Assembly: GCA_040954595.2 (NCBI GenBank) | Contig: CM082596.2 | Span: 6,088,791 to 6,152,790, forward strand | Length of the DNA: 64,000 nt | Direction: 5' to 3' | DNA from: Balanoglossus misakiensis | Lineage: Eukaryota > Animalia > Hemichordata | Shown here: positions 1 to 33,711 of the stretch, one piece after another | Numbering within the stretch: position 1 is the first letter of the stretch | Layout of the letters: the number at the start of each line of letters is the position of its first letter | Made by a program: the position numbers and the translations under genes | Notes under the pieces: model-generated | Seen by the model: only the letters and a program-made list of their open reading frames with translations | Told to the model about the DNA's origin: nothing | Databases searched by the model: none

Positions 1-612
1 GAGTGACTGATTGACTGGAGGACAGACTGTCTCTCCGTGCGCATTGTGATTGGTGTATGTCACCATGGTTACAAAGCTACCACAAGGGAAACCCATCAAC
101 GGCACAACAAATGTTGCCGCGGAGAAAGTTACAATCGACGCGGCGATTTGTTGCCCAGATCAAAGCATGCAATGCACGCAAATGATCATATTGCTTGATA
201 TTTTATTTGACTGGCGTTGTGATGGAGAAAAAAACAACACAACAGGTGGCACGAGTTAGGCCGTGCAACGCGTGTTCATCATTTTGGCTCTGTCAAGTAA
301 TTAATCTGTGCCATTCCGCAGCGGGTTGTTATACCACTGCATTAACCAATTGCATGTATGTAGGCAGAAGGCTGAGCCTGGAGACATTTCAAGTTACACA
401 CGGGGCAGCAATGCCATTGATTGCGACAACCACCATGCACGAGCGTGCCTATCAGGAAATATGAATCTATCGGAAACATATACAATGCGAGGGAAAGACA
501 GTGTGGTATGACTAATAAGTATATGTCGGAGGTTATAGCCTAATGCTGTACTAATGATATTATATTTTAAGATTTCTCTATCAGGTCCAGATTTCATGTT
601 GAAGAACGTGTG

Positions 613-915
613 TTATAACACACCATGCAGCGAACCCTCGATCGTGATTCGTCAATACGGCGTCACGTGACCATCGTCATTTCGAACTGTTGCCTAGAGC
701 ATCAGTTCGATCGGTTTGGTGTGTTATAAAACACATGATGACTGACATATTCGGGCAACAGTGTATTTTTAATGACCTCGGGACTGCCAGTCACACCAAA
801 ACAGTCGTTTTCCCTCGGGCTATGCCCTCGGGAAAACAAGACTGTTTTAGTTGTGACTAGCAGCACCCTCGGTCATCAAAATACACTGTTGCCCTCATTG
901 TCAGTCATCATGTGT
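613..915. repeat. Double inverted-repeat (foldback) element, probably a non-autonomous palindromic repeat
   Basis: 731-915 is an imperfect palindrome (ACACATGATGACTGACA...GGGC-TAT-GCCC...TGTCAGTCATCATGTGT) centred at 821-823. A second inverted pair, TTATAACACACCA (613-625) and TGGTGTGTTATAA (717-729), lies directly upstream. Confidence 0.8.
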
Positions 916-1785
916 ATATTATGTCCTCTTTGCTATCGCATAAGTATAGCGCCCTCTGTAGTGTATAGTCGATGAGACGAAATACATTGTACACAGTTCG
1001 GACATACGCAACATTTCGACGGGACATTTTTCCGAGTGTTGAACGCAGGTTTTAGCAACCAGGTAACAACATTCGACATCTGAACCCCTGAAAACTTTAT
1101 ACAGGTGGGTAGTAAAGTGAATCTCGGATGTTACAGTAATTAGCCGTTCTCCCATACGACTGGGATTCACCCGCGCAAGGTTGAAGGGTCACGTGGGGGT
1201 CATTTGCCAGTTTATACCCCTAGGAGAATCACACACAGATGTTAAAATACCGGCGATGCATGTCAGCATGACCAACGTGCATGTCCAAGACAAACGAAGA
1301 ATTCAAGTGTGTTTTATCATCAAATTGATGCCCACATCAGGACGATTAACTCGTTGGCAACTATGATAACCAACTTCCGTGTTCGTGTAGGAAACATCAT
1401 GGAACCAGCAACAGCACGTGTGCAAAATATATCGATATTAAACACCGCATTCGCCATATAGATCACCAGATAAACCCTGTCGAACTTCGTATGGTTGATT
1501 AGTTACTGAAGCTAGGGACTTGGCTTTCCTTACGTACACTTTCGTTTTGTTTTAAATGTGTGCAATAAAATTGGCAGCAGTCCAAACATGAAATCGCGCC
1601 TCTTGACATATATAATATACATAGTATATTATACTATTGATTAGTCATATATTAACCTTTTATTAGAGCGTCAGATCTGATATATTGTGTATTGTAAAAG
1701 GTGTGGCTGTACCCTAATCTGATTTAAATAAGAACTGAACGTTTGCATACAGTGTATACATTTCAAAATTATTGCTATTTCAGAC

Positions 1786-5611
<3,826 letters not shown>

Positions 5612-10570: not shown

Positions 10571-11043
10571 AGACGGGAATCCATTCTGATTGCGCTGGGC
10601 CAAACTGGGATGATACTAGTATATACAGTGTCTAGTTTAACCTTCTCCACTCACTTCCACGTCGTTTGGTTTGTCGACATCACACAGGAGGAGGAGCTGT
10701 TTTCCGTGACACGAGAACGGGCCCCCATATTCACACGGCAGGTACTAAAGTTGTCGGTATAAACGACCCACCTGCCCCCACGTCTCTCGAGGTCTGTGCG
10801 TAAATCAGCACCCAGCACAAATGATTACAATAGTCATTCTGCTTAAGATCTTTAAAATATATATATTACGTTCTGATTTGGCTATCGCATTATTAAGACA
10901 GTTTCCGAGCGTTTTAAGAGTGTTCATCACCATTCAGTAACACTAGTCTTTAAATTAGTCGTCATCTTTCGTTTTTACACTAAGTTGCCATCGTGAGCAA
11001 ACTTCCAGTGTTTTATATACACATAAACAAAAAGGTAAATAGC

Positions 11044-11846: not shown

Positions 11847-12347
11847 AGCCACATACTAGTAGGCTACATAGATATCTACCTACTATTTGCACGGATGGAG
11901 TTGGTATAAAGTTAAAATAGTTGGGGCAATTTACAATTAACCCTGTACTGGTTGTACAATGAAACAAAAACAAACGATTTTAATAGCGATGTATATGTCA
12001 AGTTTTCAGAGGATAGAAATAAAAATTATGCTCTGTGCTTAGCATCAGGAATACCTGTACTGTGTTTCACTTAAAAGTTCGGTTTTACTCATGTGAGCAG
12101 TTGCTGTAAAGAGCCGTATATTACGACGGCAAGTTGACCTCGTTGTCCGTGGGGGTCACGAAGTAGTCACGTGATAACGTTGTAGTCATGTGACAACTTT
12201 GTATATTGTGAACACGACGCCCTATCAAACCCAACGGCAACAGTGTATTTGTATTGGCCACAGTTAACATAGCAAAACCTGCAGTGTCTTGTACATCTTC
12301 CCCTCGTCAACTTCTGTAGCCCAATAACCTTATGGCCTTTATCACAG

Positions 12348-15300
12348 CTCTGAGCCAAAACATGCATCTCGACTTCGTGGAAATCGGCAAGACGTATGGT
12401 GACATTTTCACTGTCAAGATCGGGAGTAACTTGGCCGTTGTTCTGAACAGTTACGAGCTGATCGTCGAAGCTTTGGTGAAAAAGCCAACCGATTTTGCCG
12501 GAAGACCACATACATACAGTGGTAAGTTCAACACATGGTGCGCCGCGTTGTTATTGTAAACAACAACAACAACAACAACAACAAGAGCAAGGCCACCAAT
12601 AAAAACAACAACAACAACAACAACAACAACATCATCATCATCGTGAACAATGACAACAATAATCGCCATGATCGTCATCATGAATTGTCAGAGCCTTTTC
12701 AGGCATGACTTAATTTCATTCACGATTTCTTCAACGCATTGATTCTGCTGGCATTGTGTTGTTGTCATTGTTTTCTATAGGCGATGTCGTTAGCGAAGGT
12801 TCAAAGGACATAGCGTTGAGCGATTATAGTGCAACTTGGAAGCTGCACCGAAAAATTGCCCACCAGGCTATAAGGTACGTTGATCATATGTATTAAAGAA
12901 CTCATCATGTGACTTGTAGAGAGGCGAGCTGTTTAGCAACACGCGTATCTGCTGGTGTCAATGTTCATCCAACGTTCATTCCGCCCGCCTAAGTCTGTGG
13001 AAACAATCATCATTTAAACTGCACAATATCATGTATCGATTGATTGACTGATTTTTCTTTCACAGGGCCTTTGGAAGTGGTGATAAACTGGAACGCCTGA
13101 CGCACGAATCGTTTGCGCTCCTTCAGAAAATCCTGGAGGAAAGAGATGGCGAACCAATAGAGATGAAACGTCTTTTTCTTCTGACAGTGAACAACATTAT
13201 GGGCAGAATTTCTTGGGGGCATGGGTAAGACATGTGAAGTTTTTCGTCATTTTACTTAGATTGGGGAGTTTATATAAGTCTGGTGGGCATACACAAACGT
13301 ATCATGAACCTCTGTTCGTGGCTTTGCGTCAAAATGTCAAACAGTATAAGCAGGTGACGCGGCCGTTTATGCAGCCTCCTGTTAAAAGAGTACACGACTG
13401 TGTTGTTACATCACTAACACGCCACTGCACCGTTCCAATAACTCTATGGCCAGTTCCATGGGGGATTTTCCCGCTACTATCTTCTAAATTCATTGCACCA
13501 TGGAGCGCACCTATAAGTACACACACATCAACTTGAAAGAGGAAACCGCCAAAAATCACTTCTGAGGCCCGTTCTGGCTGTAGTGTTCGACGCACATTTT
13601 ATGCAACAGTGTCGACTTCTCCAATTTCAGTCACACTTTGGATGATCCAGAGTTCCAGGAAATCATAAAGCTTACAGACGAATTCATCGAAGTTGTAGGC
13701 CCCGGATTCATCGCCGACGTGCTGCCGTTTATGAAGTACATCCCGACGAAAGGAAAGCGTGACTTGGTCCAGCTGAACAAGAAGTATCTGGCTATACTCA
13801 AAACTAAATTTAGGGAACACAAAGACAGCTTTGATAAAGGTATTGGTCATACGGATTCAAAACAATCCAAACTGAACACAGTGACGTGCGGATTACTTTT
13901 ATACTAATGGAATTGCTTCGACCGCCAGTTTATTATTTCATGCGTGTCTCAGGCCATTACTCCATACGTTGCCAATCTTGTTCGCCTTCTATTCGGAGTA
14001 AATCCAATAATTGTCCCTCTGTGAATGGCCATGCTAATTGGTTCTGACTTTATTCTTACTCCAGATAATCTAAGAGACTTAACGGACCACCTGATTAATG
14101 CACAGAAGCAAGCCGTCGAGGAAGGCATCGGAGATATTGAGAAGTTGACGGATACACATTTGGTACAAACAGTGAATGATATATACGGAGGTACATGTTA
14201 AACCACATCATAACTGTGTTTGTCAGTTTGTTCGTGTATGTGTTTGCCAGTGTGTGTGAGAGAGAGAGATGGGGGAGGGAGAGAGGGGGGAAAGGAGACA
14301 TATTGACAGAGAGATAGCATAATGATCAATGGGAGTGAAGGGAAGACAAATATACCAAACGGCCCTGTTCATCCCTTCACTGAAACACGACACGAGAATG
14401 TACCAAAAGTATACAAAGCGAAATGCATACGGTTATGTTATAGCATACTTTAAATATTCAAGTAACTTAGGTGTGAATTTCAAGCTTCCGTGTCAACCTG
14501 TCTGTCATCTGTTGTCCCCCAGCTGGAGTCGACACCACCACCGAAACCATGGATTGGTCCGTCGTCTTCATGATTAGACACCCGGATGTACAGACCAGGG
14601 TTGCCATGGAGATCGACGACGTAATTGGTCGAGATCGGCAGCCGCTGCTTTCCGACCGCGCAAAGATGCCGTATTGCGACGCTGTGCTTCATGAAGTGAT
14701 GAGAATACGGCCGGTTGCTCCGTTGTCGGTGCCCCACAAGGCTCTTGTTGATTCGACCATAGGTGAGGAGATCAGAATTGTTGTCTCACTGTTTCCTGTA
14801 TACCCGCGTCTTTGTTACTGTTAGACTGTTTGTTTGTCCCCCCGGAGTGCAGTATTCATCGGTGTAGCACCGCTGTCGTCACGAGTCTGGTGTGAACATC
14901 ACGATTGGCCTGGAGCAGTTTCATCAACGTGGATTTTATCACCGTCTTCCACACCGTCTGATGTGACTGTCAGCTGCTCGCGCATCAATAGCTGTCGTGT
15001 CCACATCCTTCGTTTGTGGTGGCTGAATTCTTGTCTCGTCCAACAGGTGGCTTTAAGGTGCCTAAGGATACCTGGGTGATGGTGAACTTATGGTCTGTCC
15101 ACATGAACGAGAAGAGCTGGCAAAACCCCAACGAGTTTAGACCAGGTATGTACGCTTTGTATCCGCCGTGACTTGTGCAAATACTTTCTGAACAATGCAG
15201 TTTGTGTGACAGTTGGTGTGACAACTTGGACGCATCACTTCTCGTCGAAAATGTTGCCACCGTAATTATAATCACAACACTTTTTTCAGTGTCACTGTTA

Positions 15301-15759
15301 TGAAAATTGACTTGTAGATCCTAAGCGAAATACATGTACAAGTAATCTCATGCACAAAACAACACAGTGTAAATCGAATCACGGGCGTGCGTATTTATTC
15401 CGGAAATTTTTCCCTCTTACTTTCTTTCAGAGCGATTTCTCAACGAAGACGGCTCATTGAAAGCCAAACAAGACAACTTTATGCCATTCTCGGCAGGACG
15501 TCGGGTCTGCCTCGGCGAATCGTTGGCGAAACCCGAACTCTTTCTTCTGTTTGTCTCCCTCTATCAACGATTTACGTTTTCTCCTGTTCCCGGAAAGGAC
15601 TTGCCGAGTTTAGACGGCAATGCTAGTGCCTTAGTTTTAAGGGCGAACAAGTGTAAAGTTGTGGTCAAAAAGCGATTTAACACAGGGCTCGAAATTAAAT
15701 TTTTAATGTGGTGGTCCAAGTGGACCACCACAAATAAAAATGTGGTGGTCCAAAACTAA
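12348..15759 (+). CDS. Cytochrome P450, clan 2 (CYP17/CYP2-like); 5' anchor exon not found. Exons 12348-12521, 12781-12874, 13066-13224, 13631-13839, 14065-14190, 14523-14762, 15047-15145, 15431-15759
   Basis: DFAGRP, helix C WKLHR, I-helix AGVDTT, K-helix EVMR, FRPERF and heme motif FSAGRRVCLG. All eight exons join in frame through GT-AG introns with no internal stops. Confidence 0.92.
12559..12641. repeat. (AAC)n/(ATC)n microsatellite in a CYP intron
   Basis: Direct trinucleotide runs. Confidence 0.9.
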
Positions 15760-16721
15760 ATTTGGTGGTCACACCAATGAAACATGTAAGTCGTAACTTA
15801 AAGTCTACATGTACGCGTACGCGCGCTTGTATGCTGTAGCAGGACGCACAGTGATGTACGTGCGGTAACCTAGGCCACAAACTTAGCACGTGTCGGCGCT
15901 ATAATTTATTCACGCAGAAGCCATTAGATATAACAAAGCAAGTAGGGCTTCTGGGGTCATTTTCCTTGATGATATAACACAAGAATTCGCTACCTTGTCT
16001 GTACTAATGCGTATTGGGGGGGGGGACCACTTGCAACACGATCTCTTTCTTTATGTACTTATTCGCTACATTGTAAGATTTTTTTGTGTTGGGCCGTCTA
16101 GACTTGAAGGGAGAACTCATTCAAGTCGATGTTTATGAAAGCCTGCTTGTCTATTGCTATTTTGTTGCACGTAATTCAAATACAATTTCACGCAATTTTA
16201 TTTCGCTCTTTGCGTGCACTGCACGTAAAACATAAAATATCAAACGCGACCCCATAAACCGCGACTCTGCATGTCAAAAGAACTCTATTGACATTACAGT
16301 TATTCCATTGACGGACTTGCGTTAGCATAATGTACATAGACCCTGGAGCATACACTGCGTTTCCAATGGTGATGCCCAATAGTATTGCTAAACGTCACAG
16401 TAGTTTCAAGGCTACCCCGAAAATATAGTTCCATTGCTTATTTGTATATGGGTTACATGAAACGGGTCTTTGTTCACGTATATGGTCATGCGGGTAGCTA
16501 AGTGACAGCTGGGAGGAGCGTTAGGGATATTGCGGTCCTGAAATATACGGAAGTGAACTATCGCTAAATCATTCCTCTTACCGAACTATCTAAGCACTGA
16601 AGACGAACGAATTATAATTGGTGGTCAAAATGGACCACCAATTTTTCAAATGTGGTGGTCCAAAATGAAAATGTGGTGGTCTTTGGACGCAAGACCACCA
16701 TTAATTTCGAGCCCTGTAACA
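15678..16721. mobile_element. Non-autonomous TIR DNA transposon (about 1034 bp, hAT-like CAGGG ends) inserted in the last CYP exon
   Basis: Perfect 16-bp TIRs: CAGGGCTCGAAATTAA (15683) and TTAATTTCGAGCCCTG (ends 16716). TAACA is duplicated on both sides. Multiple subterminal TGTGGTGGTC/GACCACCA repeats occur at both ends. Confidence 0.9.
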
Positions 16722-18049
16722 CATTGGCCGATATTGAAGCAGAAACAGGTCAATAAATACTTTAAATATTCAATTTGTTTTGCTACCTTTTCCCAATCAT
16801 TCCATGATCTCTGATAATGATATGGTTTTGCTTATTAAGCTTAGTTTTCATCCAAATAAATGATACTTTCTGGATTTGAGCCGCAAGTGAGACGAATGTC
16901 TAAAGCGGAGACTTGGTGTATATTTTACTCTTTTACCAGGGCTATAGAATCATTTCTTTATAACGACTGTAAATGTGTTTGATCACAAGTGAATAAACAT
17001 CATGACTTTTTTATATCTGAGACGATTTTTTTCTTTCTTCATGATTGGCAAAAAAAACTTTGGCTTATTTTGGTATTTCTGGTCATAATTATAAATTTTA
17101 AAACATAATAAATGTCGAGAAGAATGTACTGACAAAAGGAATGGGGCTTACTTGCATATTAAACATCACGCACTGAAATAGGTCGCAATATATGTGTATA
17201 GCAATTGTTGTGCCCACAGAGACATTGGCAACTGACTATAAATTACGGAATATACAGTAAAAATTAGCATGCAAGCTGATGGTGTTGACGCAGTATACAA
17301 TTTTATAAATAATGTATTAACACACACGGAGGAGAGCAACAGTTCTCGTAAGTATACATACCACGTTTTGATTTACTTTATTTCATCTTTTTCATTTCTT
17401 AGTTGCTTTGTAAATTGCCCGATTTGATTTTATAGGGTTGTCATGGAAAATAATGAACTATGTGTTATGGTTGATTTTCTGTAATCCGCTGTAGGCCTAC
17501 CAGTGATCAGTTTGCGAAATCATAACCCGTTTACTCTGTGAGCGACCAAACATTTATCCTTGGGATTTAACGTATTTATGGGAAACATTCAGACATTTTG
17601 AAGAAAATGACAGTGCCGTGATACCTATGGTTGCTCGACCTAACTAAATCTACTCTATAGCCAAAGATGCAGTTGTTAAAAACATAGAAACGGGAAGCAC
17701 CGTGCTCTAAAATGCATAGACCACAGGCACGCTATTTTTGTGCTTCGAATCTTCCTATTTACGACAGAACCTTTTCACACGCAGCTGTAGCACTTCTATA
17801 TTCAAGTGAGCAGCAACAATAAAATTGTAGTTGGCGTAAATCAAGTTCCGTTATCTATATTTAGTTATCAGTGCGTAGGTTGGCTTTGTTCGTATAATCG
17901 CTAAACACGAACAATTGGTTTTCTGGAACCTGAGCTTTGCGGAAAATATTAAGAACAACAACTTTTTGAGTGATTTTATGCGAATGTTAACAGGTAATGT
18001 TCACTTTTGTCTTCTAGTTCATAACACATACTTCTTAGAAGAGAGAAAG

Positions 18050-21000
18050 ATGAGGAGATCGAAATCGATCTTGCCAGTGATTTCTGTGTCTTTCTTGACT
18101 CTCTGTCAAGGTGAGTCTGCTATTGGTAAATTGTGGAATATAGTGTACAGGTTTTGGTACTTTTATGTAATAAATAAGAATATTTCTATATGTATAATTT
18201 TTACCATTTTTTCTGTTTTTAATATTTTTGTAGTGGTATTATCAACACGACAGACCTATGATGCTCCGAGTGCGGAACCAATGCAGGAAATTCCCTCACC
18301 GGGCAGTTCAACTACGATACTCCCTTCAGACGTGGAGGACGCGCCAGTCGTCCGAACAACATCGACATCGACACCAAATCCACCCTTGGAAGCAGTTCCA
18401 TACCTTTTGTCCGCAGAGACCTTTACACAATCGTACCTTCGACCCGAAGTGTTGTCAATTGTCCCAACGAGAGGCCCCGAAAGTGGAGGTACTCTGGTTT
18501 ATGTCCAAGGCACCAATTTTGAGGCAGACCCAGGAAGTTTCTATGACTGCAGTTTTGGATCTGTAGTCACAGAAGGAACGTGGATTTCAACAGAACTGAT
18601 CGTGTGCGTTGCTCCAAAACACACCGTTGGTATTTTCAGTGTCGTCGTCTCTATAAACTACACTGAAATATTTCCATCGGACAATGTAAGTACATTATGT
18701 TTCATGCACATTATCGTTGAACGCACAGACTGTACCCGAAGAACATCAGCGACTCAGTGATTATTTTTTTCCAGACGGAGTACGAGTTCTATTCAGCCTG
18801 CGTAGCTGGGCAGTGCGGCAGTAACTATACTGATCCCCGTGGTGTCTGTGCGTTGGGAGCCTGCACGTGTGACTTTGCATGGTTTGGCGAAGAATGTGAC
18901 ATTGCAAAGAGGGCCCCAAAGATCACACGGATGACAGACAAGATTGTGTATGAAAGTCAGCCACTTCGCATTAATCTAACCACTGATGAGGTGGGTATAT
19001 AACTCGGCATATGTATGTGAGAGATGGGCGGAGGGAGGGATGGGGAGAGAGAGGGGGAGGAGGAAATAGAGAAAGAGAGAAGAGAGAATGATGTAGAGAA
19101 ACAGAGTGGGGAAGAGAGAGTGTGGGAATGAGACAGGGTGGCAGAGGAGAGAGGGAGAGGGGGTGCGTGATGTAGGTTTGTGTGTATATTTTTGTCACGG
19201 TGACGTGTTAGCATGTGTATTCTATATGTGATTATATACTTATACACATCCCATAAAACATTTACATGCTCTTTGACAGGGTTCCCAACCAGAGCAATGG
19301 CATCTCCTGAACAGTCCTGATGGAATGACAGTTGACCCTACAACGGGAATTCTGACATGGGACCATCCTGCAGCAAGAGATGAACCCTATACCATAACCA
19401 TCACCTGCGGTAATATTGTGGGAGACGATTCCTTCAACTGGACTCTGACCGTCTATCATTCCTACAATGTAACCCTGGACTACTTGTCTGAAACGTCACC
19501 ACTGCCGTTTGCTAAACAAGTTGTCTTAGGCGGGAGTGTGACTTTCTTCAGAGAAGCCCAAGAATCTGTCAAAGTTTCTGTCTGGTAGGTTACAGATTTT
19601 TTTTACAGTTTGGTGAAACCGCACATCTCTGATATGTAGCTAGGATTTGTTTGACGGACCAGGTTTTGGTAATGTGGAGCACTACCCAAGTTCAATGCTA
19701 ACATGATACTAAATCATTTGGAAATGTTGCAGGATTTCACATGATGACGTCATCCAAAAGCTTGACACGTGGACGCAAAGTGACAACCGCTTCAACGTTA
19801 CATATTACCCAACATTCCATGAAGCTGGGATATTCTATGTGGTAAGTTACTTGTATCGTACAAACTCTATTGTCCGGTAAGCTGTATACATCGTGTACAT
19901 TGCCATCTTTACTCGTTTCTTAAAGGAAGCAAGACATCCAGGCGATGGTGGTGATTTCCAAGGGATGACGTCATGGATGGTCAATGGTATGAGCCTCTTC
20001 CCAGAATCTGTGGAATATCGACGTTACCTTGGTGACGCCTCCTTTGAAGATGTTGCTTCGCTGAAGAATGTTGGACCACTGACTCTCACAGACATTGCAG
20101 TCGAAGTAAATATCACACGGGCTTATATATTTGGCAGTTTTAACATCACGAGGCGACAGTGGTGATACAAGAATGGTTGGCATCCAAATTAGTGCAAGCT
20201 GTCTTTACCACACTTCGACTTCATCACCCAATGAGTGGTTTTACGAGTTGTTGGTTTGGGCGTGGCACACACCCTTAAATATATAATACAATATACTTTT
20301 TTGTAACTGTTTACTCTCCAGGTTGATCTCAATGGATTGCCTTTAGACGCTGTTAACGTCTTCAAGTGTGGTGCAAGTGTTGTGGATGCTTACTTCCTAA
20401 GGACCTTTCCACAATCAGACACTGAATCCGTCTGTGTAAACATGACAGCATCTTCACCTGTGAATGGAAGCTTGGACATTCTCTTCAGAGCCGAGAATGG
20501 CACATATGTAAAACTGAAGTTCAACGTTGTATTCCAATCGAGGGAAGCTTTCTTGCGAACTGCCCCAGAAAGTTTGGAAGGCAGTGTACAGCGAGGTACC
20601 CAGCAACTGTTCGAGGTGAGATCATATCTAACTCGGTCCAAAATACAAGTCGACTACATTTCAAGGTACATGGCAACCAGTTAAAACCGGAAGCTCGGAC
20701 ATGTAATTGATTTTTGCAATCGTTTTTATTCATAGGTTGTTTTACTAAATGATGGCTTTGACGGGATTGAAGACCTGCAAGTTTCCCTCCCAGAAAATAT
20801 AACCGCCATCTCAGTGGTCTCGCTGAGTTCTGGCGGAATGGCGAACAAAGCTGCAGTAGACATCCCCGGTGGGGATTCTGCAACACTTGTTTTACTGCTA
20901 TCGCCACCACCAGACTTGACCCCCGGGGATTTGTCAGGGAGCTTCCAACTGACCGCAAAGACGACAAACGTCTCGCTGGACTATGCGTTCACCGTGCGAG

Positions 21001-24000
21001 AGGGACCGGTCTTTGATCTGGTCATAGTTGTGGAAGACGAGTACACCTATTTTGGCCAAGAGAAACCCTTGGTCCGCGACGCCGTCGTAACGCTCAGAAA
21101 CCCACAGGAAAAACTGGAGTACAGTGCCAAAACTAATTCATCAGGTAAGTGCAATTTTACGCTGTGTGTTTTGATGTAAGCAAGACATAGTCAATATTGT
21201 TTAAGTTGAAAATCATTTTGAACATTCTTATCATAGGAACAGCAGTGGTTGCCAGTATCAGGGAAGCTGTGTACACGTTGAATGTGAGTTCGCCAGACCA
21301 TGCACCATATACAACTATTATCAGAACATCGCAGATGTCCGGAAATCCGCTTGTCGTGTGCCTCATGAGGACCCCTCTCTCCTACACATGGACTGTGGCT
21401 CCTAAAACTCCAAGGAATGACTATTATATTTCGATGGAGCCGAAGTTTACAGCCGAGGTAACTGATTATGTCAACTCATGCGCTATGTTATATTTCTCAG
21501 TCATCGTACAGATGACGTCACTGATATTTGTCTGTGGCATATGAATACTTTTGTTTCCAAACGCAGGTTTCCATGCCAGTTGTAACAATCGAACCTTCAT
21601 GGATTGATCTGAGCACCTATGAAGACAGCGACACCCTTGATAATGAGATTGTGTTCAAGCTAACAAATAATGGCTTGATAGCTGCTGAAGAGGTTGCACT
21701 GGCTTTACCAACTGATCACCCAACATTGGACTTCGTAATGGTTAGTGGTGGTTAAAATGTATATAATGCCACAATATGGGGGTTCAGATCAGCGAGGAAC
21801 CAAAAATATATTGACACGCAGGTATTTCAAAACTCGTCTAGTATTAAGGAAGAAGACAATGGCGGAACGCAATACTTATAATCGTGAAACCAATGACGTG
21901 AAAGAAACTTATGCCTGCATAGACTGACTGATTGCACCTGGCATATGTATATGAAGTGTATGCATTTTTTCTCTTTATTTAACTGTAGCCACAAAACAAC
22001 TCGATTACCCGTCTGCTCAGCATGACAACGGTTACAGTGCGAGTTGAAGTTCATCAGAAGAACCGACTGCTACGGAGAGACTTGACAGATGCAGCTTGTT
22101 ACAAGGGTCGCCTTGGTTACAACTACGTCACAGACGTGCAAAAGAGCGTCAGTTTCTTGGTCTACTTTGTAAGTTCGCCCTTGGAGTGTATCCCCGATTC
22201 TCGTAAGTATAATTGTCTTAGACTTGAAACTGTTCATGGTAGAATCTCGTCCGCTCAACAACTCTGTACACACCTGTCTAACTCCACAGCAAACTTCATA
22301 AAATGACTTAACGTATGGTGACTTCTTTCAGGTCCGACAAACCCTGCAGACATTGGGGCACCTGGTAACCACATTTACATACCAATTGAATACACACCAA
22401 CTACGTACATCTACTGCGACTGTGCAGATGCCCTCACCGACACGTGCGTCAGAGAGGAACTGCCGTCACCTTTGAACTGCCTGTCTTCAGATGCCACGTG
22501 GAAAGATTCGTTGCTCTTTTACACAGACATTGTCATGCGGTGTGCGGGTGACGTCACCGGGGGAGAAGCTTTGACGTCAGATGCCGAGAAACCCGCAACA
22601 TTGGAATCGTTGTGGACAACTGCCAGGCTTGTGGTTTACCAGTTGTCCGTAGTGAAATTGGCTTCCATCCATTAATAATTGCAATGCTAACATGGAGTCC
22701 ACCACCCTAAGTATTAGCGTTGCATTGGTGTTGGTCTATACCCTTGGGATTATGGTCGCAAACATTTCTTCTATCGGTGTTACTTTTCCCAACTTTTGCA
22801 GTAGTTAAATCGTCCACCAACTAAGTAAACGATTCCCACTAAAATCTCTATTTCTCCAAAGGTGTCTATGGGATTCGGCCGGAACTTGTGGACAGAGAGA
22901 CAGCGACGCAAACCCGGACACTTCCGCGGCTCTGTTGGACGCCAGTCTGGCTTTGCAAAGCTTTCACGAGTTAACCTTAGAACTATTTGGCAGTGATCAA
23001 ATGTAAGTGCATTTTAAGATCCTTTGCGAATCTCGACGTGCGAACTTAACCACGTTTGATTCAGTACCACCACTGATTGTAACTACACTTTTTTCGCGAA
23101 CAGATTATTTTCGACTAACAACTCCTGGTATACGACATTCAAACTAGCCACTGCTGACTTGAGTGATTCCGCACAACTGTTGACTGCCGACGAGTCCGCT
23201 GCGGTCATGGATGAAGCTCCTAACATCCCCAGCGGACGAGACTTTGTCGGTCAGTTTATACAACGTTGGAACAGCACGGTGTTTTCGTGGAACAACGGAA
23301 TTTACGAAAGTGACGGCACCTCGGATCTAATATCGTACAATACGGCCAAGTATTTATCACTGGTGTTCCAGACTTATGCTGGGGAAGCTAGGATGGTATG
23401 TAGCAGACTACCTTTGAGATACAGACATGCGCGCAGTATACACGTACCTTTGGTTTTAAATCTCGCTAACGAAAGTGATTTAACTGCTAATTACCTTTCA
23501 CTTGAATCGACTTTCCATCCATGATGCGTTGCACCTCACCATTGGCAAATCTGCAATTGGTCTGTGAAATTAGCGTCTCTATGTTGATGCTTGAGCGTTC
23601 ATTTCCTCCCTTACATTTGCAAAGTCATACACACAGCTCATTTCTGAAAGAAGAAAAACGATATTACGATATCATTAATGTCTTTTCTTCCTTTGATTGG
23701 CAGGATGGGTACTATGACGCATTCAATAAATTTGACTCCGTATTCAAGAAGTATGTGGAGGCCAAAAAGATGGAGGTAAGCGGATTGAAACATTACTGAA
23801 AAAAGAGGTCGACATAACACTATGTCTTAAATTATTTCGAATTTTTGAGACAACATTTGAACCTTATTTTTCTCTCGTATAAGGTTACTTATGGCTGCGC
23901 ACGTTTGCAAGTTCAAGTTCGAGAAGATTCGGTGTTTACAGGAGGCGTCTTCCACACCAATGTTATGATTGAAAATTATGAATCCGTGGCTTTGAATGGA

Positions 24001-26863
24001 ATAGATCTGAAACTCAAGATATGGCAGTATGGGGACAATTACCAGACGGATGTTACTGAACGTTTCTCATTAAGTGAGTCATGATGCTTATTATCTGTGT
24101 AACCTTCCATGTTACAGAATAAAGGACCAATTCAGCCAATTTATATCATCCACAAGTATCAGCTATGGCATTTCCCCCGCCAACTATTTTGAACGCACAT
24201 ATGCCTTCCTACACCACTACCTGCAGTTACAGCAATACATTAACATTGCATTACAGGTGACCCAGATCTAGTTGGCATAACCTCTGTTGATAGACACAGC
24301 ACATCTGACGGGGAAATTTCAGCGTCTTTCCAGTGGTCAGTAGACGCATTGCAGTCCGCGGCAACAACTGATGATACCGTCTACGCAGTTGGTGGAAATG
24401 TCTCATACCATGTTGGTCAGACCTTTCTGACAGTACCTCTGTTACCCGATATAATCACAATCAAACCAGGCTACCAGCTGCATGTACATTACTTCTTTGC
24501 AAAAGAGGTCCCTGGCAATAGGTTTACCACTGAAGAAGATGAATACATACCATTTAATTTCGGTGTCATGGTAAACAATGGCGGATACGGAACGTTACAC
24601 AACCTCACAATGTTACCACACCAACCAGAGATAATTGATGAAGAGAACAAGTTGCTCAACTTTAAGATATTGGCTTCCATGTTAGACGGGGAACTCACAA
24701 CACCATCCCTGCAAGTTGATTTTGGCACTCTACAAAGTACGCAAACGAAGACCGCTTTGTGGTGGCTGTCGGCCAATCGAACGGGGATCTTTTCGAACTT
24801 CTCGGCAACTTTTGCAAATATCGACGCGCTGGGAAATGCAGAAGTGACGATAGCCGAAGATGTGCAGAGACACGAACTCATACACTTGGTCAAGATCGAC
24901 GCAGGCGTGGAAGGCGATGATGTGCCGGGTTTCTTGGTCAACGACGTCGGTGATGAAAATTCACAGCCCCACTACCTGTACAATTCTTTCACCGGAAACA
25001 GAGATGCAGTGGTCATCCTTGACACGCATACATCCGATGCCATAAACGAGGAGGGAGACCAGTACAAGTTCCTTGAAATTTCGACGCACCTACAAGAGCA
25101 ACGTGGATGGACGTACACTTCTTTTCAAGTACCACAATCACTAGTCCACAGTACTGTGGTTTCGGTGTCTAGAGAAGACGGCAGAGAAATCATCAGCGAC
25201 TATAACGCGTGGATGACTACATCAAATAACGCGTCATTAATTCACATTCTGGACTACTTCACCGAAGAAACGACAACAGTGCTTATTAACTACAATATCT
25301 CGCTGGTTCTCGCCAAAAGTGTACCACCAACCCTCGAAAGTCTCGTATCTGAAGCAGAGGCTGGTGGAGGTTCTTCCATACGCGTACCCACAGTAGACAT
25401 TGCTGCTCCGTCAGGAACCGTGATTTTTGCCATGAACGCCAACGGAAGTAGCGGTGGGCATGACTCGTACATTCTGAAGGGAGCCAATGGAACTGAAATG
25501 CCGTTTGTAATCGACCAGTTGACTGGAAATGTGTCTGTGAGCAGGAACCTCACCTATGACGATGCGATGAGATCGCCATACTTGGTGAAAGTTTGGACAC
25601 TTAGCGATGACGCCACACATCAAAATTACACCATAGAATTAGAAATATACATCATGGCAAACAGAGATGGACCAACATTTACTGAATCGCTATATGACAC
25701 CGAAGTCGACTATGAAGCATCAGTTGGAACTGTCATCTTTGTCGCAAAGGCAAAAGATAATGACACGGGTGACGCCGGAATTGTATCGTACCAACTTCAC
25801 AGCCCCACTGGTGGTGACGAACTTCCTGTTGGTATCGACGCCAGTTCGGGAAACATTACCACCACGCGGAATCTCTCGTATGAAGACATCCTTTCCTCGC
25901 CGTTCGTTGTCACGATATTTGCCACGGACGGAGCTGTTCCACAGAAAACCGGTACGGCCCAACTGAGAGTGTACGTCACTGATGGACCAGCCAATAAGAT
26001 GCCACCAGCCTTTAATGTGTCCACGTCTGTGTTTTCAGTTGGTGCAGACACTCCATCGGGTTCTGTTGTCATCGCAGTGCAAGCTGAGGACAGCGATGAA
26101 GGCGCGGCTGGTGAAATAACCTACTCCATCAAGGACCACGATACTGATGTCCCCTTTGATATTGACCCAACCACGGGGGACATATCCACCAACAGGAATC
26201 TCAGCTACAATGATGTCCTCTCGTCCCCTTTCCATGTTAAAGTATGGGCTGTGGATGCCGGAATTCCTCGCAAGAAGACGAGCATCGAACTGGAAATCTA
26301 TATTCGCGAAAGCCCTCCCTACGTGGACAAGCCAACCTTCGAAATGCCATATTCATATTACCAGACCGCACCATTTCATACTTTAAATGTGTCCACAGAT
26401 AGTGACTTGATTCCACTGACAACAAATATTATTCAAGCAACTAACTCTCAAAAAACGGCACCGTTAACGGCAACCACTGAACAACTTGTGCGATTGACTC
26501 CAACTATTGGCTTTGTTACACCATCAACAATAACCCAGGAACCAGCTCCCTCGCCCACATTAGGTTTCATACAGCCGACCACGATCCAAAAACTGACCAC
26601 AAGTCCGTTGTCAGGAGTTCCCACGCCAAACGTTCTGTTACTTGAGCAGTCAAACCAAGCAAGATTACTTGAGCCTTCAATCCTGCCTACGGGAATTACG
26701 ACGATGCAGACCACAGCGCCGTCATCTTCAAGAACCAAATCAACTCCTACTATTTCTGTTCAAACGTCGACAGTGTCTTTTGAAACAAAGTCACCATCGG
26801 CATCTGTGGTCATTCAGCAGCTACAGACACCAAATCCACAGATGGAAGGAAGCCCATCACAGA

Positions 26864-26946
<83 letters not shown>

Positions 26947-27528
26947 CCACCACCACCGCCGCCGCCATCACCACCACAAAATCAAGGACCAGAATCTCCT
27001 GACAATCCTGGCAAACAACAGGCACCACCACCACCGTCAGAGAATAAGGCACCAGCGATCCCTAACCAACTCCCAAAGCTACCACCACTGCCAAATGTGA
27101 AACTACCACAATTGCCTGGTAACCTCCCAAAGCTACCCTCACTGCCAAACAAAATACCACCAGCAGTTCAACAAAAGCCAATAGGAGGCCAAACAGAGGA
27201 GAAACCAACGCCGCCAATTGAAAAACTACCCATCGCTCCACCCGCCACAGACAACATTCAGCACTTGCCACAACCCACGTCTTTGACGATGCCAGTCACG
27301 CAACAGAATCAAACATCAACTGAAAGAAATACCACAACTACCACCACCACCAACACCACGACCGTGTACACCACTGTAATTCCGGACAAAAGTCAATCTG
27401 TCGAAAAAGCCCAACAGTTGGCACTTACTGCTCTCACTATAGCCGCTGCCTTTGCCGTTACAATTGCTAATGTTATGTCTGTAGTCTTCGTCGTTTGGAT
27501 TTGTCGGTATAGAGAGGAATATTACTAG
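18050..27528 (+). CDS. Giant type-I cell-surface protein of about 2300 aa in 17 exons: signal peptide, IPT/TIG, EGF-like, putative Ig, long beta-rich module, 3 cadherin-like repeats, Ser/Pro/Thr stalk, TM, short tail
   Basis: Exons 18050-18110, 18234-18685, 18775-18990, 19280-19584, 19733-19841, 19926-20105, 20322-20615, 20736-21144, 21237-21457, 21567-21740, 21989-22202, 22332-about 22626 (donor uncertain), 22862-23002, 23104-23395, 23704-23775, 23884-24073, 24257-27528. Motifs: PTRGPESGGTLVYVQGTNF (TIG), CTCDFAWFGEEC (EGF), PDGMTVDPTTGILTW (putative Ig), AKDNDTGDAGIVSY and AEDSDEGAAGEITY (cadherin), hydrophobic C-terminal helix. Confidence 0.85.
26866..26946 (+). repeat. Coding (TCA)27 poly-serine microsatellite
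   Basis: Pure TCA run, in frame in the last exon, followed by poly-Pro. Confidence 0.95.
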
Positions 27529-27929
27529 AGGTCAAACCTGAAGTATAGTACTGTAGTCAGTCTGGTTTTCCAGAATAAAACAAACAAAAAGACGCAAAAA
27601 GGTGTTATACATGTGATTTTCTTGTTCGTTTGTATTTGAAACTTTCCATAATAACTCGAATTTTCTATTTTTTTCAATGGAAACTTCTGTAAGCAGATAA
27701 AGATATGTCTATGCTTCCTCTTTGATATTATTCCTGTCTCAAATAAATTAAAAAGAAACATGTGTGGACTTTTTTCTTGTTATGAGTTAATGGTTACGCA
27801 GTTCCGTACAGACCGAGGTTGTAGCGCGGATAATTCTAATCTAGCTAGGGGGTCTGACTATAAGCTGGGTCATGAAGAGGTCAACGTTGTCTATTTTGCG
27901 CATGCTCTTTACATGATAGGAATTTCAAA

Positions 27930-30900
27930 ATGGCGGCGGCAGTGGTAAGTAAAACTAAACCGAGAATTTATATGAAAATTACTGAGTTGACGATGATTTT
28001 ATTGCTCATCGGAAGGGTTGAGTTCGTTCTTTACATCTTAGCCACTGTCTTGACGGGTTGTGTGATCGACCGAGGCTAAATACGGCGCCATGGCGCAGTT
28101 TATCGACCCTGTCGACCTATGTCAATTGCTCAAACTGTACCGATTGTCATGTCAACATAAACATCTGATGGTTTGCGACAAGGTACTGGCACACCCACAT
28201 AGCTTGCTGATAGATGGTGTGTGTTCTTTCATATTGCAGGCAACTCCTGTGAAACCGAGGTCATTGCCACCTCTGACTTCTGGTAGTGATCCAGGTAGGT
28301 GTTTATAGCATTGGCTATTCAGATGGACGCATCTGTGGTACATGTACACAGTGAGACTTGTGTTGTTAACAGAAAGACCTCTATTGGGGTCTCTCTTGTC
28401 AACAGAGAAACATGTGCATGATCAATGACATGCTCCAAGCAATTCCTTAAAGGTGGCCATTACTTTTGTCTGGTATTCAAGACTGCCATTATTGCAGTCA
28501 TGTTTGTCAGGGCGAAGTCATTCCTATTCTTCTTGACAATGAACCATTAGCACGTTGTTGAGCAAAATGCTACAGTTATAGGGTTTCTTTCTCTCTCTGC
28601 GCAGATGCTCTCCCGACATCCGCAAAGAGTGGCAAGCGAAAGAAAAAGAAGAAGCCGATCACAGACAGTAAGTGTCTCTTAGAAATATCATGCAAACATG
28701 GCAACACATTTTGAAGAGTTTGTATATTATTTGGCTATTCTTGCACCTATGTTTTCTGTGATGCATCTCATAGTGATACTTATTCTGCAATAACACCAGC
28801 CTCTGTTCATTCACTGTCTACTCGCAGCTGTTGAAACCAGTGATTCCCCGGCCACTGCAAGCACCAGTCGGCAGAACGCGCTGGAGGAGTTAGAGGCCGA
28901 GGACAAGCTGATGTCCCTCTCGGGGAGCAGCGAGAACATCCTGACTGAGACGCCGAGAAAGAGGAAAAAGAAGGCCTCGAGTAAACTTCGTCACGGCTAC
29001 GATTTTGAAAGTGGGGCTGAAGGTAAGATTGTAGTCTGCATGTACAAATCTTAGACATGAATATGTCCATTGTAATGTACTGCAGACTGTGTTGGGATGT
29101 TATGTTCAAAATTGACATGGTATTCAGGTATTGAACCAGTTTAAGTCTATTGTACGTGTACATCCTGCCTGCATCTTGTACAATATGTAAAAGGACCTGA
29201 CAAGACACAGCTGACATAATGACCACATAATAAACAAACTTTTGTATAAACATTCAATTGATTTCCATAACTGTGTTCTCATATCAGCTTTTCTGATGTT
29301 TGTCGTGTACAATTTACAGCTGAACTGCGTGGAGGCGATGAAAATCATATCAATAATTTGAAGTCTTCACCGAGTGCGGCCAGGAGAAGACGAGCAAAAG
29401 GTAATAAATGGTGTTCCAGATATTTTGTAGTTGCCTGAATGCCGGAAGTTTAGGCCTCCTGAAAATCAAACCAGTTTCCATGGAAACTGATAATGCACAA
29501 GTGATGTTCAATGGTCTGAACTGAAGATGTCGCTTTGCACAGGCAAACAGAGTCACTAATAACTTCTCATACTTTGTACATCCAGAGACGACCTCCAGCG
29601 GTGCCAAGAGGGTCCCTCGATCGGTGAGTGAGGAAATTCTCCAACAAGAACAGAACGGGAGTGTGGAGTCGGCCAGAGAGACCACGCCCAGGAAGAAAGC
29701 CAAGCCGAAAACAAAAGGTGGGTCAGTCGCACTTGAAATCTAACTTGGGTAACAATTCCCTCTGTATTACCCTACAGCCTGATGCAAAACCATGCTGACC
29801 AGATCATCACGCATGTAGCCGTAATAGGAAGTTATGCATGTGTGTAAGTTGACATGGCTCATTTTCATTGCAAAACTCAAATCTATTTTTGTACAGAGGA
29901 GAGTCCAGACGGTGGTGATGATGGAGGGGAGACATCAAGAACACCAAGATCAAAACCACCCTCGGGAAGAAAACCCAAAAAGCGAAAACAGCAAAGGTAT
30001 GAAGAACGTTGAATTGTACAAGTTTCTTCTCCAGTGTTAACTCTTGCATCATTGAGGAAGTTGGTGAGAAATGCCTGCTGTTCGTGCAGACATGCATACA
30101 GGGAACATCAGCAACATTTTTTCGATTTGTAGAGGGCACACTATTCCAAGATGTCCACTTATTGAGTGATGATGCATTCAGGATTGTGATTTCACTTCTT
30201 GATTTATGAAAAAGGAAATTTCTTGTTTCAGAATCGCCATGTCTGCAGATGAAGACTACCAAGCAGATGGAGAAGGTGAGACTGAAAACAAAAATGGTGT
30301 ATACACCTTTTGTCTTACTGACATGAACATCACATGGTTTTGACATCCTGTCATGTTTGTACTTACGTGAAATATTCCTACTGTGTCTTTTACTACACTA
30401 CTTCTAAATGTGAATATTGACTAACATCTGCAACATAAACAAATAAAACATTATTCATTTTATGGTTATAAATATAGAAATAGTTGTATTTCAAACAAGT
30501 TGGTTTATTTTACAATCAGAATTGATAATCATCAAATAATATTTTATCCCATGTTTTGATATTAGTTTCGGTGGATTTTATGGTTCATGATGAAGATCTC
30601 GTCACAGGAGATAAGGAAAGGTCGAATGATATTCCAATGCAGTCACATATGACCACATTACCCAGCCAGCCGACCAATCGTTTATTCATGGAAAGAAAAA
30701 GTAAGTCTAATATGCTTCTGTTGCAGATTTACTGTTGGTGAAGTTGAACGTTATGTTGTTTCCTTTTAGGTTTTCCTTGATAAGAGTTATCAAAATTCAG
30801 AATGTATGGATCACTGTGCTACTGGATAAAATTAAAGCTGTGTCAACAAAGTACTGTATTGTTTGTAATCTCATCATAGAAATTGAAAACCTCTATGTTG

Positions 30901-32811
30901 AGTTTACCTTAACTGTACTTGTTGCTTTATTATTACAGGCGGTTTTAAAAGTGAACAGAAGTCGCGTCTTGCCAAAGTGAAAGAAACTGAAGAAGAACAC
31001 CATGAGATCCCAATCAAAACAATGACATCACCAGAATTAGCAATGGTACGTTTCACAAAATTTTCCCCTCAGTACACATTAAGTGATTCAACAGAAAGTC
31101 AACATCCAAACCCAACCCGTCTTTTCAGAAAGTTAGTTTTGGAATACAGATTTAATGCAGAGGGTGATGGTCGGTGGGAATTTCAAATATTGCTGAATCT
31201 GGCCTTCATGTGTTTCTGAAATAATCTATCAACAACCAGTAACATCTTGTTTTGTTTTGCTTTTGTCTGCACAGTCAGTACACCGTGGGTTCATGACCCT
31301 ATCCTTATTTTGCCATGGTATTTTGGCGGGCTTTGCGCTCTGGCAGTGTGTGGTGGTTTATTCGTTGTCTTCAGACGGCGACGAAAATTTCTTGACAAAC
31401 TACTACAAACTATCGCTACCAGCTATGTCCATGTACTATTTCCTCTTGGCTGTGTGTACAGTCTCAGCATTTGACAGGTGAGTTGCTGCTGTATTTGTTT
31501 TGAGACTACTGTTTTGAATCTTGAAATATTTCGTTTATTGTAATTTTGTTATAATATTTTTGATTTCAATTTTTGCTTGTTTTTTGCACAGATATGATCT
31601 TGCCAGACCGAATAGAAAGTTCTTCAAGGGGCTTCTCACATTCCAGTCAGGAGCTATATCCATTCTAGGTAATCCAGAAAATGAATTCAAAGTTTTTTTC
31701 TAACTTTTTCACTTTGTCAGATCTTTAAGACTGCCTTTATCTGGTTTTGCTGTCAACCACTGTATGAATCGATATCAAGTTTGGAATCATAATTTTGTTT
31801 GTCTTCTTTTTCTCGTAGTGTATTTGATTACACTGATTTTCTCAGTGAGTATTGCGGGGTTAGATGACAGGATAGGCCTGTATGGCAAAACAGATCCACC
31901 GCTATGGTAAGTACTCATGCACACTGTCAACATTCACCCATGTTTTGTTTGAAATAGCACAGATGCCGGAATCATTGGCGAGAACCATACATCATTAATA
32001 CATCACAGGGGTTTGGTGGGTGTTTTTTTTGCACAATTTGATTTCAAAGTTTTCATCACTACATGTACGATTGTGTTCTTATAATATTATGTCTCTTTTC
32101 CTGCAGTGAACCTGACTGTCCAGACGAGTCTCTTTGGTAAGTTGCTACATGTACCGGTACATTAGATTCTGCATCACATACATGCATTCAAATATTACAT
32201 GTATGTTCACACATGTATACATATGTACATGTGACACACAATGATATTGGGTGAATGATTAATGCATTAAACATTCTCGCTTCTTTTTGTCAGGCAAGAT
32301 GACGGGGCAGCGTACAGGTTGTACGTGTGGAGAATACTGAATTTAATGCGGGTTATTGGCGCCATATTGGGATGGATCATCCTGTCTCTCACCCCAACAA
32401 CGGACTACACACAAGGTATCAATTCAAATGGGGGTTTGCTGCTTCTTATAGTGTACCAGGCTATGCTTGTAGCAAAGGCTGTCTGTCCAGAAATCTTCAA
32501 TCGATTTTAAATACATGTACATGTACATGTACATGTCATAGACGCTTGCAGTTCCAGGGGCCACATATATGAATCATACTTTACACTTTATGACAGCTGC
32601 AATAATTGGACAATCTGAACAACTAGGGGTGGTAGACCTCGATCAATTTTACATCCCTGTTTTTGAGTACTGAAGTCAGCACAATTAATCTCAGACTGGC
32701 ATACTGTAAATGCCTGTTTTTGTTTCGATTTCAGACCATCTGAAGAAAACCGACGAGCCTCTGTGGGACGAAGGTGAAAACGAAGTCAACCAGCGTCAGC
32801 ATGGTGTCTGA
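27930..32811 (+). CDS. TMEM237: Transmembrane protein 237 (ciliary transition-zone protein), 16 exons
   Basis: N-terminal PRSLPP...KKKKP, then QPTNRLFME, VHRGFMTLSLFCHGILAGFALWQ, YYFLLAVCTVSAFDR and WRILNLMRVIGAILGWIILS match TMEM237. Exons 27930-27944, 28240-28294, 28605-28667, 28828-29022, 29320-29400, 29586-29717, 29897-29996, 30232-30275, 30566-30700, 30939-31045, 31275-31477, 31592-31668, 31819-31906, 32107-32136, 32294-32415, 32735-32811 join in frame. Confidence 0.9.
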
Positions 32812-33711
32812 GCCTTGAAACAGGCGAGACCTCTGTACCATCACTACTGCAGACTTCAAGTGGCACGAAAAATGCCAATGTGTGATTACCATTCCAGTTA
32901 CTCCAATCAACAACTATTTGATGCAGTACGCTGGCGGTAACATTAGACCATACCCTTGAAACATTTGAGTTCAGGAGTAAAATCTCATCATGGCTTCTGT
33001 GTACATACATGTATCAGTCTGGAAATTTATTTTAAACAAAATAAATGTATATAAAGTGTGACACACCAAATAAAAAAGAATAAATTATCAAAAGTGACTG
33101 AATTTAAAGGCAAGGATTTTTAGAAAAAAATATTTTGTGCCAATCAACTCAAAAAAAGAATATTTAACAACGACCATAATAATATGTCTATTAGAAGAAA
33201 GCTTGACAAGTAGATTAATAGAGAATAGAACAGGCTAGAAGGAACCTTTGTAATATATTTTTAGTGATACATGTACATAATATTCCATTGAAAATTAATG
33301 TACTTCATTTCCCCGTATTAAAAAAATATATCCGTCCTCCTTGTACTTAAACTTGATGGAGTCAAATGATTATGTAGTATCGAAAATTTAGTTGTTATTT
33401 TTCCATCACCCCACTTAAAGAGATCACACTTTTACAGATATGTAGCCTGTAATTTGGCATCTTATTTTTTTCGATAAGAGTACTGTGAAACTTGTGTAAA
33501 ATACAGAGAACTACAGTTTTAATTGATCCATGCTTGCTTTTGACTTTCAATTATCATTTGATCATACTTCAGTTATAAGAACATTATTTTCTTATATGGA
33601 GGTTGACTTTTTTGATTTGTGATTTTTTGTACCAGTACGTTAAATGGCATATTTATTAAAATTTGTAAATAATTCTTTATAAGGTTCAAGTGTGTTTGTG
33701 TGGGGGTGAAC

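Follow-up and report, generated by a model that had tools for sequence, protein, structure and literature searches.

An undescribed protein family linking a probable bacterial split payload carrier with animal surface proteins, examined from a Balanoglossus misakiensis gene

Introduction

Teneurins are the textbook case of an animal surface protein that came from a bacterial conflict system. In the published account, bacterial teneurin-like proteins are toxin platforms, exported by the Sec pathway and carrying variable payloads, with EGF-bearing surface proteins as their animal homologues and a transfer inferred near the origin of animals (PMC13018210). In the polymorphic toxin systems, Rhs and Hint domains together with Sec export are hallmarks (PMC3482391). 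Here we describe a gene of the hemichordate Balanoglossus misakiensis that lies on a 64,000-nucleotide stretch of contig CM082596.2 (assembly GCA_040954595.2, positions 6,088,791 to 6,152,790, forward strand; hereafter the window). Between an EGF domain and cadherin repeats its protein carries a module of about 1,180 residues, and this module belongs to an undescribed family that links a bacterial split payload carrier with animal surface proteins. On the reading we favour, which we place a little on the probable side, a bacterial scaffold for displaying payloads was domesticated as a surface protein, and the window copy is a disarmed adhesion or coat protein.

The module family is parallel to the teneurins but unrelated to them. 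The two would share the exported bacterial platform with variable payloads, the EGF-bearing animal homologues and the transfer near the animal origin, and both have a transthyretin-like domain; the match to fly teneurin (Z 9.7, root-mean-square deviation (rmsd) 2.7, 85 aligned residues) covers that domain only. Teneurins keep a YD shell, an NHL propeller and a C-terminal tip, whereas the animal module proteins lack a YD/Rhs repeat and keep the scaffold around the payload. No RHS/YD Pfam family was found on 15 window exon translations or 10 relatives, and of the teneurin superfold of NHL propeller and FN-plug the model of the Ptychodera orthologue shows no propeller. The topology also differs, being type I here and reported as type II in teneurins, and the module family has no named vertebrate, insect or nematode match among the matches listed.

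Rhs/Hint polymorphic toxins exported by the Sec pathway or a type II secretion system resemble the bacterial members in their signal peptide, Ig-like N-terminal region, Rhs core or Hint domain, variable tip, occasional downstream immunity-like gene and association with transglutaminases (PMC3482391). The module family differs in having a separate C-half that is predicted to complete a split carrier domain, and in that most members are fused and hold a helical payload inside the chain, not a toxin at the C-terminus. Bacterial giants with CARDB, putative-Ig and Calx-beta repeats are true homologues of the window module and contain it in full and colinearly. Thioester proteins (A2M, TEP1, C3) have a comparable body of several beta-sandwiches with an inserted helical domain and a protease-sensitive linker, but beyond generic Foldseek matches the searches gave no fold match to their MG ring, CUB and alpha6-alpha6 thioester domain and no sequence-family match, and the GCGEQ thioester motif is absent from the window model protein. 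With the cadherin superfamily the window protein shares two to three repeats near the membrane; these are accessory in the module family, and there is no classical cadherin tail, the catenin-binding cytoplasmic domain being replaced by seven residues and a stop.

Results

The window gene and its predicted fold

We built the gene model by hand from splice signals. It spans 18050-27529 on the plus strand in 17 exons with zero internal stops and introns of 84-308 nucleotides. The predicted protein has 2,303 residues with a GT donor at 22642, in which case all 16 introns are GT-AG, or 2,298 residues with a GC donor in exon 12; at this one junction the five-residue ambiguity persists, since the GC donor (22627) fits Ptychodera and the GT donor (22642) fits Mytilus. 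The model is backed by the Ptychodera flava protein, the closest match, which is 53% identical across window residues 358-1515. An earlier note on this DNA had picked out 11 motifs between the EGF and cadherin parts, and all 11 occur in the order given, at residues 256-1439. The exon model, Pfam and hydropathy likewise bear out its picture of an intron-rich gene with a signal-like N-terminus, cadherin repeats, a mucin-like stalk and a transmembrane anchor. The features are as follows.

18050..27529, plus strand: whole gene, predicted type I membrane protein (splice model, hydropathy, relatives)
18050-18110, 18234-18685, 18775-18990, 19280-19584, 19733-19841, plus strand: exons 1-5 (splice model, as for all exons)
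19926-20105, 20322-20615, 20736-21144, 21237-21457, 21567-21740, plus strand: exons 6-10
21989-22202, 22332-22626 or 22641, 22862-23002, 23104-23395, plus strand: exons 11-14
23704-23775, 23884-24073, 24257-27529, plus strand: exons 15-17
18050..18110, plus strand: signal-peptide-like exon (hydropathy peak at residues 5-25 alone)
18440..18685, plus strand: IPT/TIG domain (PF01833, E 1.2e-13)
18775..18930, plus strand: teneurin-type EGF domain (PF23106, E 1e-6)
19280..19584, plus strand: putative Ig (He_PIG-like) domain (PF05345, E 2.8e-4, below the curated cut-off)
19733..21376, plus strand: module N-half, two Ig-like domains, the second ASH/PapD-like, and a transthyretin-like domain with EDEYTYF (AlphaFold, VIA Z 10-12)
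21377..21457, plus strand: first strands (SYTWTV hairpin) of a predicted split beta-sandwich, the rest supplied by the C-half (VIA)
21567..22057, plus strand: Ig-like domain (VSMPVVTIEP) before the payload site (AlphaFold model, alignment)
22064..22078, plus strand: basic site 1 (RLLRR), minimal furin-type (sequence, family counts)
22079..23892, plus strand: payload region with cysteine hairpin, linker, cysteine-rich helices and helical bundle (FIQRWNST) (alignment, model)
23893..25310, plus strand: module C-half, from GCARLQVQV to beyond FLVND, a gene with its own signal peptide in many bacteria (homologues)
25320..26310, plus strand: cadherin repeats, two by Pfam (PF00028, E 5e-28) and a third by the repeated LS/TY.D motif
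26330..27410, plus strand: S/T/P-rich mucin-like stalk (composition, 49% S+T+P)
27415..27529, plus strand: transmembrane helix, 7-residue tail and stop (hydropathy up to 2.4)

The fold was modelled with AlphaFold on the Ptychodera orthologue (57 aligned rows, predicted local distance difference test score 81, predicted template modelling score (pTM) 0.45). The model is a row of beta-sandwiches with a helical middle, in which VIA-align finds an Ig domain, an ASH/PapD-like domain and a transthyretin-like domain at Z 10-12. Four VIA rows (25, 36, 41 and 49; Z 9.4-10.3, rmsd 2.5-3.0) align a single compact domain over model residues ~367..926, in which the YTW hairpin would join the strands that follow CARLQV, with everything between them nested inside. 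The nested part starts with an Ig domain and the basic site, continues with a cysteine hairpin and a linker rich in glycine, and ends in cysteine-rich helices followed by a helical bundle; in the model the payload helices and those following pack as one bundle. A split beta-sandwich is predicted to clamp a swappable payload.

Searches with the core returned little that is named. Pfam gave nothing in most of the module core and named families only at the protein ends, and the family scans resolved no ordinary pan-metazoan domain in the core, as the earlier note had anticipated. For the helical payload there were zero Foldseek matches at E<=1e-3 and a best VIA Z of 6.6 to unrelated bundles, which is not proof of a new fold; the whole model drew only generic multi-Ig matches (TM<=0.16). 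A PDB sequence search with family member P0001 found none at E<=1, and one with the family profile found weak transthyretin-like matches only. In the Atlas, three unnamed clusters scored 0.92-0.95, two of them with bacterial records and recognition below the mark, and a search with member P0002 gave nothing.

Homologues in bacteria and animals

The family profile spans window residues 357-1527 in one piece, with N-half, payload site and C-half colinear. The last-exon part alone matches 2,144 clusters (50% identity) at E<=1e-3 and 501 at 1e-30, from many bacterial phyla and from sponges, brachiopods, annelids, molluscs, shrimps and hemichordates, a range that is patchy among animals, as had been expected. 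GTDB holds at least 540 relatives among the 600 matches listed. The best 80 come from seven named phyla (Verrucomicrobiota 47, Cyanobacteriota 16, Planctomycetota 7, Pseudomonadota 4, Bacteroidota 2 and two further phyla with 1 each; 2 unplaced) and include complete Calothrix genomes. The best bacterial match, among those listed, has 27% identity over ~1,200 residues (E 6e-101), the alignment of the bacterial protein P0234 begins as far upstream as the He_PIG-like domain (19280..19584), and the whole module is colinear in 281 of 447 sequences; WP_044523664.1 from Nostoc PCC 7120 plasmid alpha is one family member with the full module. Bacterial kinship of the module is virtually certain. In bacteria the module mostly sits in fused giants that also bear CARDB, cadherin-like, Calx-beta or dockerin repeats; their names refer to these accessory repeats only, the core having no Pfam or NCBIfam model. 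The likeness to giant bacterial proteins with CARDB and putative-Ig repeats that the earlier note pointed to is real homology, but the relatives are not just adhesins: the payload site carries Rhs or Hint in some.

Animals with the module are Saccoglossus, Ptychodera, Owenia, Lingula, many bivalves, Haliotis, Gigantopelta, the shrimps Halocaridina and Macrobrachium, and the sponge Dysidea. Saccoglossus has the region in four tandem copies, one partial, and paralogs form large sets in Mytilus, Haliotis and the sponge-like sequences. Among the matches listed (120, 120 and 150 rows, with names looked up for 30 proteins) none was named as cnidarian, echinoderm, chordate, insect or nematode; these lists are incomplete, Macrobrachium being missing from one, and non-appearance is not absence. 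Most full-length animal copies end in a stalk and a hydrophobic anchor, and cadherin repeats number 0-9 in the relatives. The module is not an insertion in a cadherin-like gene, as had been proposed, but the conserved core of its own family, with cadherin repeats as accessories. In Dysidea avara (P0202) it forms the N-terminal ectodomain of an adhesion G-protein-coupled receptor with Calx-beta, Ig, GAIN and seven-transmembrane domains.

Many unnamed ENA proteins cluster with Dysidea; our label "sponge-like" denotes this grouping only and is unproven as to source. A viral source was considered for them and dropped: viral-contig scans and phage tblastn gave nothing, they group with Dysidea, and one locus has introns. 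The sponge-like and shrimp copies open with a conserved cysteine-rich domain of ~330 residues that has no Pfam match (P0165 residues 1-330 and relatives).

The full-text literature searched, which did not extend to subscription papers, did not show a description of the family. One transfer screen was confined to genes lacking matches in animals outside the deuterostomes, so the module family would fall outside it (PMC4729200); another study lists zero chimeras for Macrobrachium and Halocaridina (PMC13389597).

Split loci and payloads in bacteria

The bacterial gene is often split exactly at the payload site. In 24 of 387 C-half proteins a stand-alone C-half starts with Met and a hydrophobic leader directly before the CA[RK]V motif. 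Eight split loci with upstream DNA were assembled from plasmid matches (four of five records examined, one of them a fused form and two from one species), from five genomes behind loci and from 150 sampled genomes of one phylum; in that phylum the family is present in 4/150 genomes and split in 4/4. An Rhs shell lies at or beside the payload site in 4/8 loci and a Hint domain in one, giving Rhs or Hint in 5/8, and transglutaminase genes adjoin 3/8. The loci are arranged as follows.

L088 (Methylomonas) and L107: N-half leading through hairpin and linker into an Rhs core with C-terminal tip, fused
L089 (Eleftheria): N-half, Rhs gene, ankyrin gene, C-half, type II secretion operon
L108: Rhs end directly upstream of the C-half
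L106: N-half ending in a helical payload and Hint
L079: tail that resembles HExxH by eye, without a Pfam name
L091: ends in cysteine-rich helices
L105: split locus, payload not assigned

Candidates for an immunity gene are the ankyrin gene after Rhs in L089 and an unnamed 255-residue open reading frame in L107, with none evident in L088. A gene set recurs on the Eleftheria plasmid (L089:5827-33426), L088:1-16860, L105, L107 and L108: an N-half carrier, an Rhs protein, an immunity-like gene, a C-half, and rhodanese and transglutaminase genes, to which L089 adds a full type II secretion operon. This set resembles a self-standing toxin export system that has not been described so far. Payload inserts run from 83 to 519 residues in bacteria, and in minimal copies of some cyanobacteria the insert is hairpin and linker only, without the helical payload. 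Overall, we regard a payload-carrier role in bacteria as probable.

Furin-type sites in animals and the state of the window copy

Animal copies have added furin-type sites on either side of the payload. At site 1 the R-x-K/R-R pattern is present in 55 of 151 animal-type rows and a dibasic pair in 138; site 2, sought in a wider stretch than site 1, is present in 103. The bacterial-type rows have the pattern in 0/200 at site 1 and 4/200 at site 2, against a background of 1/1,351 windows. After clustering at 70% identity the counts are 15/30 (site 1), 26/30 (dibasic) and 19/30 (site 2) for animals, and 0/78, 13/78 and 2/78 for bacteria. The payload is the most variable part of the module, and the piece between the sites is mildly hydrophobic in animals. 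The idea of a pore-former was weakened on dereplication, and no outstanding pore-former match was found.

The window copy departs from this pattern. Its site 1 is minimal (RLLRR), site 2 is missing both here and in Ptychodera, its payload is non-hydrophobic (0.57-0.70), and one hairpin cysteine is missing. It keeps 100 of the 131 positions common to animals and bacteria and has lost 31; other animals keep 113-131, the exceptions being Ptychodera with 100 and a single Saccoglossus repeat with 103. The window and Ptychodera copies sit on a long branch. We infer from these features that the window copy is a derived, disarmed paralog raised on a cadherin and mucin stalk, and a disarmed surface role for it seems reasonably probable.

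Origin of the eukaryote copies

The animal rows share a single branch both in the tree of the C-half (262 rows, support 1.0) and in that of the module minus payload (90 rows); in the latter one unnamed row guessed to be bacterial fell among the sponge-like ones, and many bacterial-side rows are unnamed. An unrooted 52-row tree with quick approximate likelihood-ratio support (SH-aLRT 96 and 97) places 20 eukaryote rows on one side of a branch. In this tree L084, a spliced gene from a metagenome scan (the same gene as L085 and L086), falls outside the animal rows, yet with them against the bacteria. Its features resemble those of choanoflagellates, and its host is probably a non-animal, unicellular eukaryote. 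The order along L084:95-3832 is C-half, FN3, disintegrin, cysteine-rich repeats, stalk, membrane helix and NPTY tail.

Because the eukaryote copies form one branch that includes a probable non-animal, the origin was likely single and ancient rather than lineage-specific. An ancient acquisition, as had been proposed, is likely, but not as an event of the window's own lineage: it predates bilaterians, and possibly animals. The window module has 13 introns and the sponge-like L083 module none, and the four of L084 lie at places without an intron in the window; bivalve-like open reading frames share the position of the window's last intron. Such differences between lineages fit a single uptake, no later than the origin of animals, of a gene that had no introns, and we consider one ancient transfer from bacteria likely.

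In domain order the shrimp copies (P0019, P0175, P0004 and P0070, from Halocaridina and Macrobrachium) are of the sponge type, and they cluster with sponge-like sequences; the approximately unbiased test rejects a clade of shrimps plus bilaterians (p-AU 0.006, 36 rows). Old paralogy or a second transfer, possibly from animal to animal, are possible explanations.

Genomic neighbourhood and haplotypes

The window gene is real and no artefact. Its neighbours are animal-type (P450, TMEM237, OATP, Roc-COR), the OATP transporter, cytochrome P450 and TMEM237 genes lying at 6871-15680 and 27930-32830, and the module has the same base composition as the remainder of the gene (GC 0.47, and 0.50 at third codon positions); the module is therefore not bacterial contamination. 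Two haplotypes are present in the window DNA, with ~412 listed differences, ~5% of positions over 18000-26800. Haplotype indels in exons keep the frame (+3, -3, -2/-1, net +33) and intronic ones often do not, in a check that covers 12 indels and 3 joints, with a further 16 indels outside it. A 33-nucleotide in-frame insertion in exon 2 separates the two haplotypes, and two differences within the RLLRR site are synonymous (hand-read). An apparent identity of the haplotypes in exon 12 was discounted, as contig depth suggests collapsed single differences.

Elsewhere in the window, a 1,042-residue single-exon Roc-COR protein (1732-5608) has several hydrophobic segments inside its Roc domain and a TIR-like exon after it. 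Just past the P450 gene, inverted repeat ends of ~100 nucleotides, alike by eye on opposite strands (15623-15790 and 16600-16720), enclose ~1.1 kb, which looks like a non-autonomous DNA transposon.

Discussion

Domestication of a bacterial payload-display scaffold can be set out as a mechanism. The C-half is predicted to complete the beta-sandwich begun by the N-half, and for that reason the halves would stay together, as two genes in bacteria or as a furin-cut chain in animals. Signal peptides, and the type II secretion operon at one locus, suggest that bacteria export the pair to display or deliver the payload. The furin cut in animals would mimic the bacterial two-gene state. Typical animal copies may be cut twice, which would free or expose a disulfide-stapled helical piece. 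The window copy would be cut once, at RLLRR, its payload staying bound, and may bind partners or matrix through its Ig-like surface, held out on the cadherin-and-mucin stalk.

Several observations weigh against this account. Most bacterial copies are fused and have no known toxin: 40 of 42 payload regions lack a Pfam match and the other two have TSP3 repeats only. PEP-CTERM proteins lie downstream of 7 of 22 scanned fused copies (picked from 39), a neighbourhood that speaks for a role in the matrix and not for one as a toxin. Two Methylomonas strains, a single pair, share a near-identical Rhs tip and have no clear immunity gene. The hydrophobic-payload signal shrinks on dereplication and cysteine removal (animals 10 vs 6 of 30). 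In the window gene 19 of 30 haplotype-differing codons are non-synonymous (from a non-random 40 of the ~412 places), so constraint is not strong. L084 fills 21% of columns, sits on a long branch and has its highest identities with bacterial-side rows. The tree is unrooted with no bacterial sister group resolved, and the direction of transfer therefore rests on breadth and introns. Finally, the fold model is that of the Ptychodera orthologue, with its pTM of 0.45.

Animal copies, perhaps the window's too, could instead still be effector carriers, from which furin would release a helical peptide, stapled by cysteines, to attack microbial membranes or to signal, in innate defence or self-recognition. 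Flanking furin-type sites that arose only in animals, a highly variable payload, the large paralog sets, the pairing of a similar helical payload with Hint in L106 and the high amino-acid difference between the window haplotypes would suit such a role. The window gene, however, lacks site 2 and has a payload that is not hydrophobic, and in the model the payload helices bundle with those that follow; with no outstanding pore-former match, we think this unlikely. We are equally doubtful that in bacteria and animals alike the module has a purely structural part to play, as an adhesin or a matrix scaffold, with Rhs/Hint fusions as occasional recruitments and furin serving maturation or shedding. 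The fused, repeat-bearing giants, their PEP-CTERM neighbours and folds matching pilin, S-layer and ASH domains agree with it, but it does not account well for a split at one fixed point with a new signal peptide, for toxin-system hardware there in five of the eight loci, or for the span of payload lengths.

That no transfer from bacteria to animals took place, an old eukaryotic protein having passed to bacteria or several transfers having occurred independently, seems improbable. The unrooted tree, the probable non-animal host of L084, the placement of the shrimp copies and the patchy bacterial range (few of the genomes sampled in one phylum) leave some room for it; against it, the eukaryote rows form one branch, deep eukaryote lineages share no introns, and bacterial copies span at least seven phyla and more architectures (split, minimal, Rhs-fused). 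A trap of the alpha-2-macroglobulin or complement kind, changing shape on cleavage of a variable loop to capture a protease or microbe, is very unlikely, for although TEP1, A2M and C3 are among the generic Foldseek matches and a helical domain nested in a split beta-sandwich with furin-flanked cysteine-rich helices resembles CUB/TED and anaphylatoxin, the TM-scores are 0.06-0.11, no A2M Pfam family lies on any core and the helical part has no match to the barrel of the thioester domain (TED).

The domesticated-scaffold reading can be extended, at a strength we would call rather unlikely, to a second teneurin-like event: a two-part bacterial toxin-display machine captured before animals and rewired for furin, with disarmed paralogs, the window gene among them, turned to adhesion. 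On that same tentative footing, sponges, molluscs, shrimps and acorn worms would still release a hypervariable, cysteine-stapled effector peptide at the cell surface.

The module family would have escaped notice because it seems to be absent from model animals and because Pfam has no model of its core. Its bacterial loci suggest a type of export arrangement not yet described, a split carrier with an Rhs/Hint payload and transglutaminase and rhodanese neighbours. Few animal surface-protein families have been traced to bacterial conflict systems, and this one would be an independent case, bearing on the extracellular toolkit of early animals and on the immunity of sponges, farmed molluscs and shrimps.

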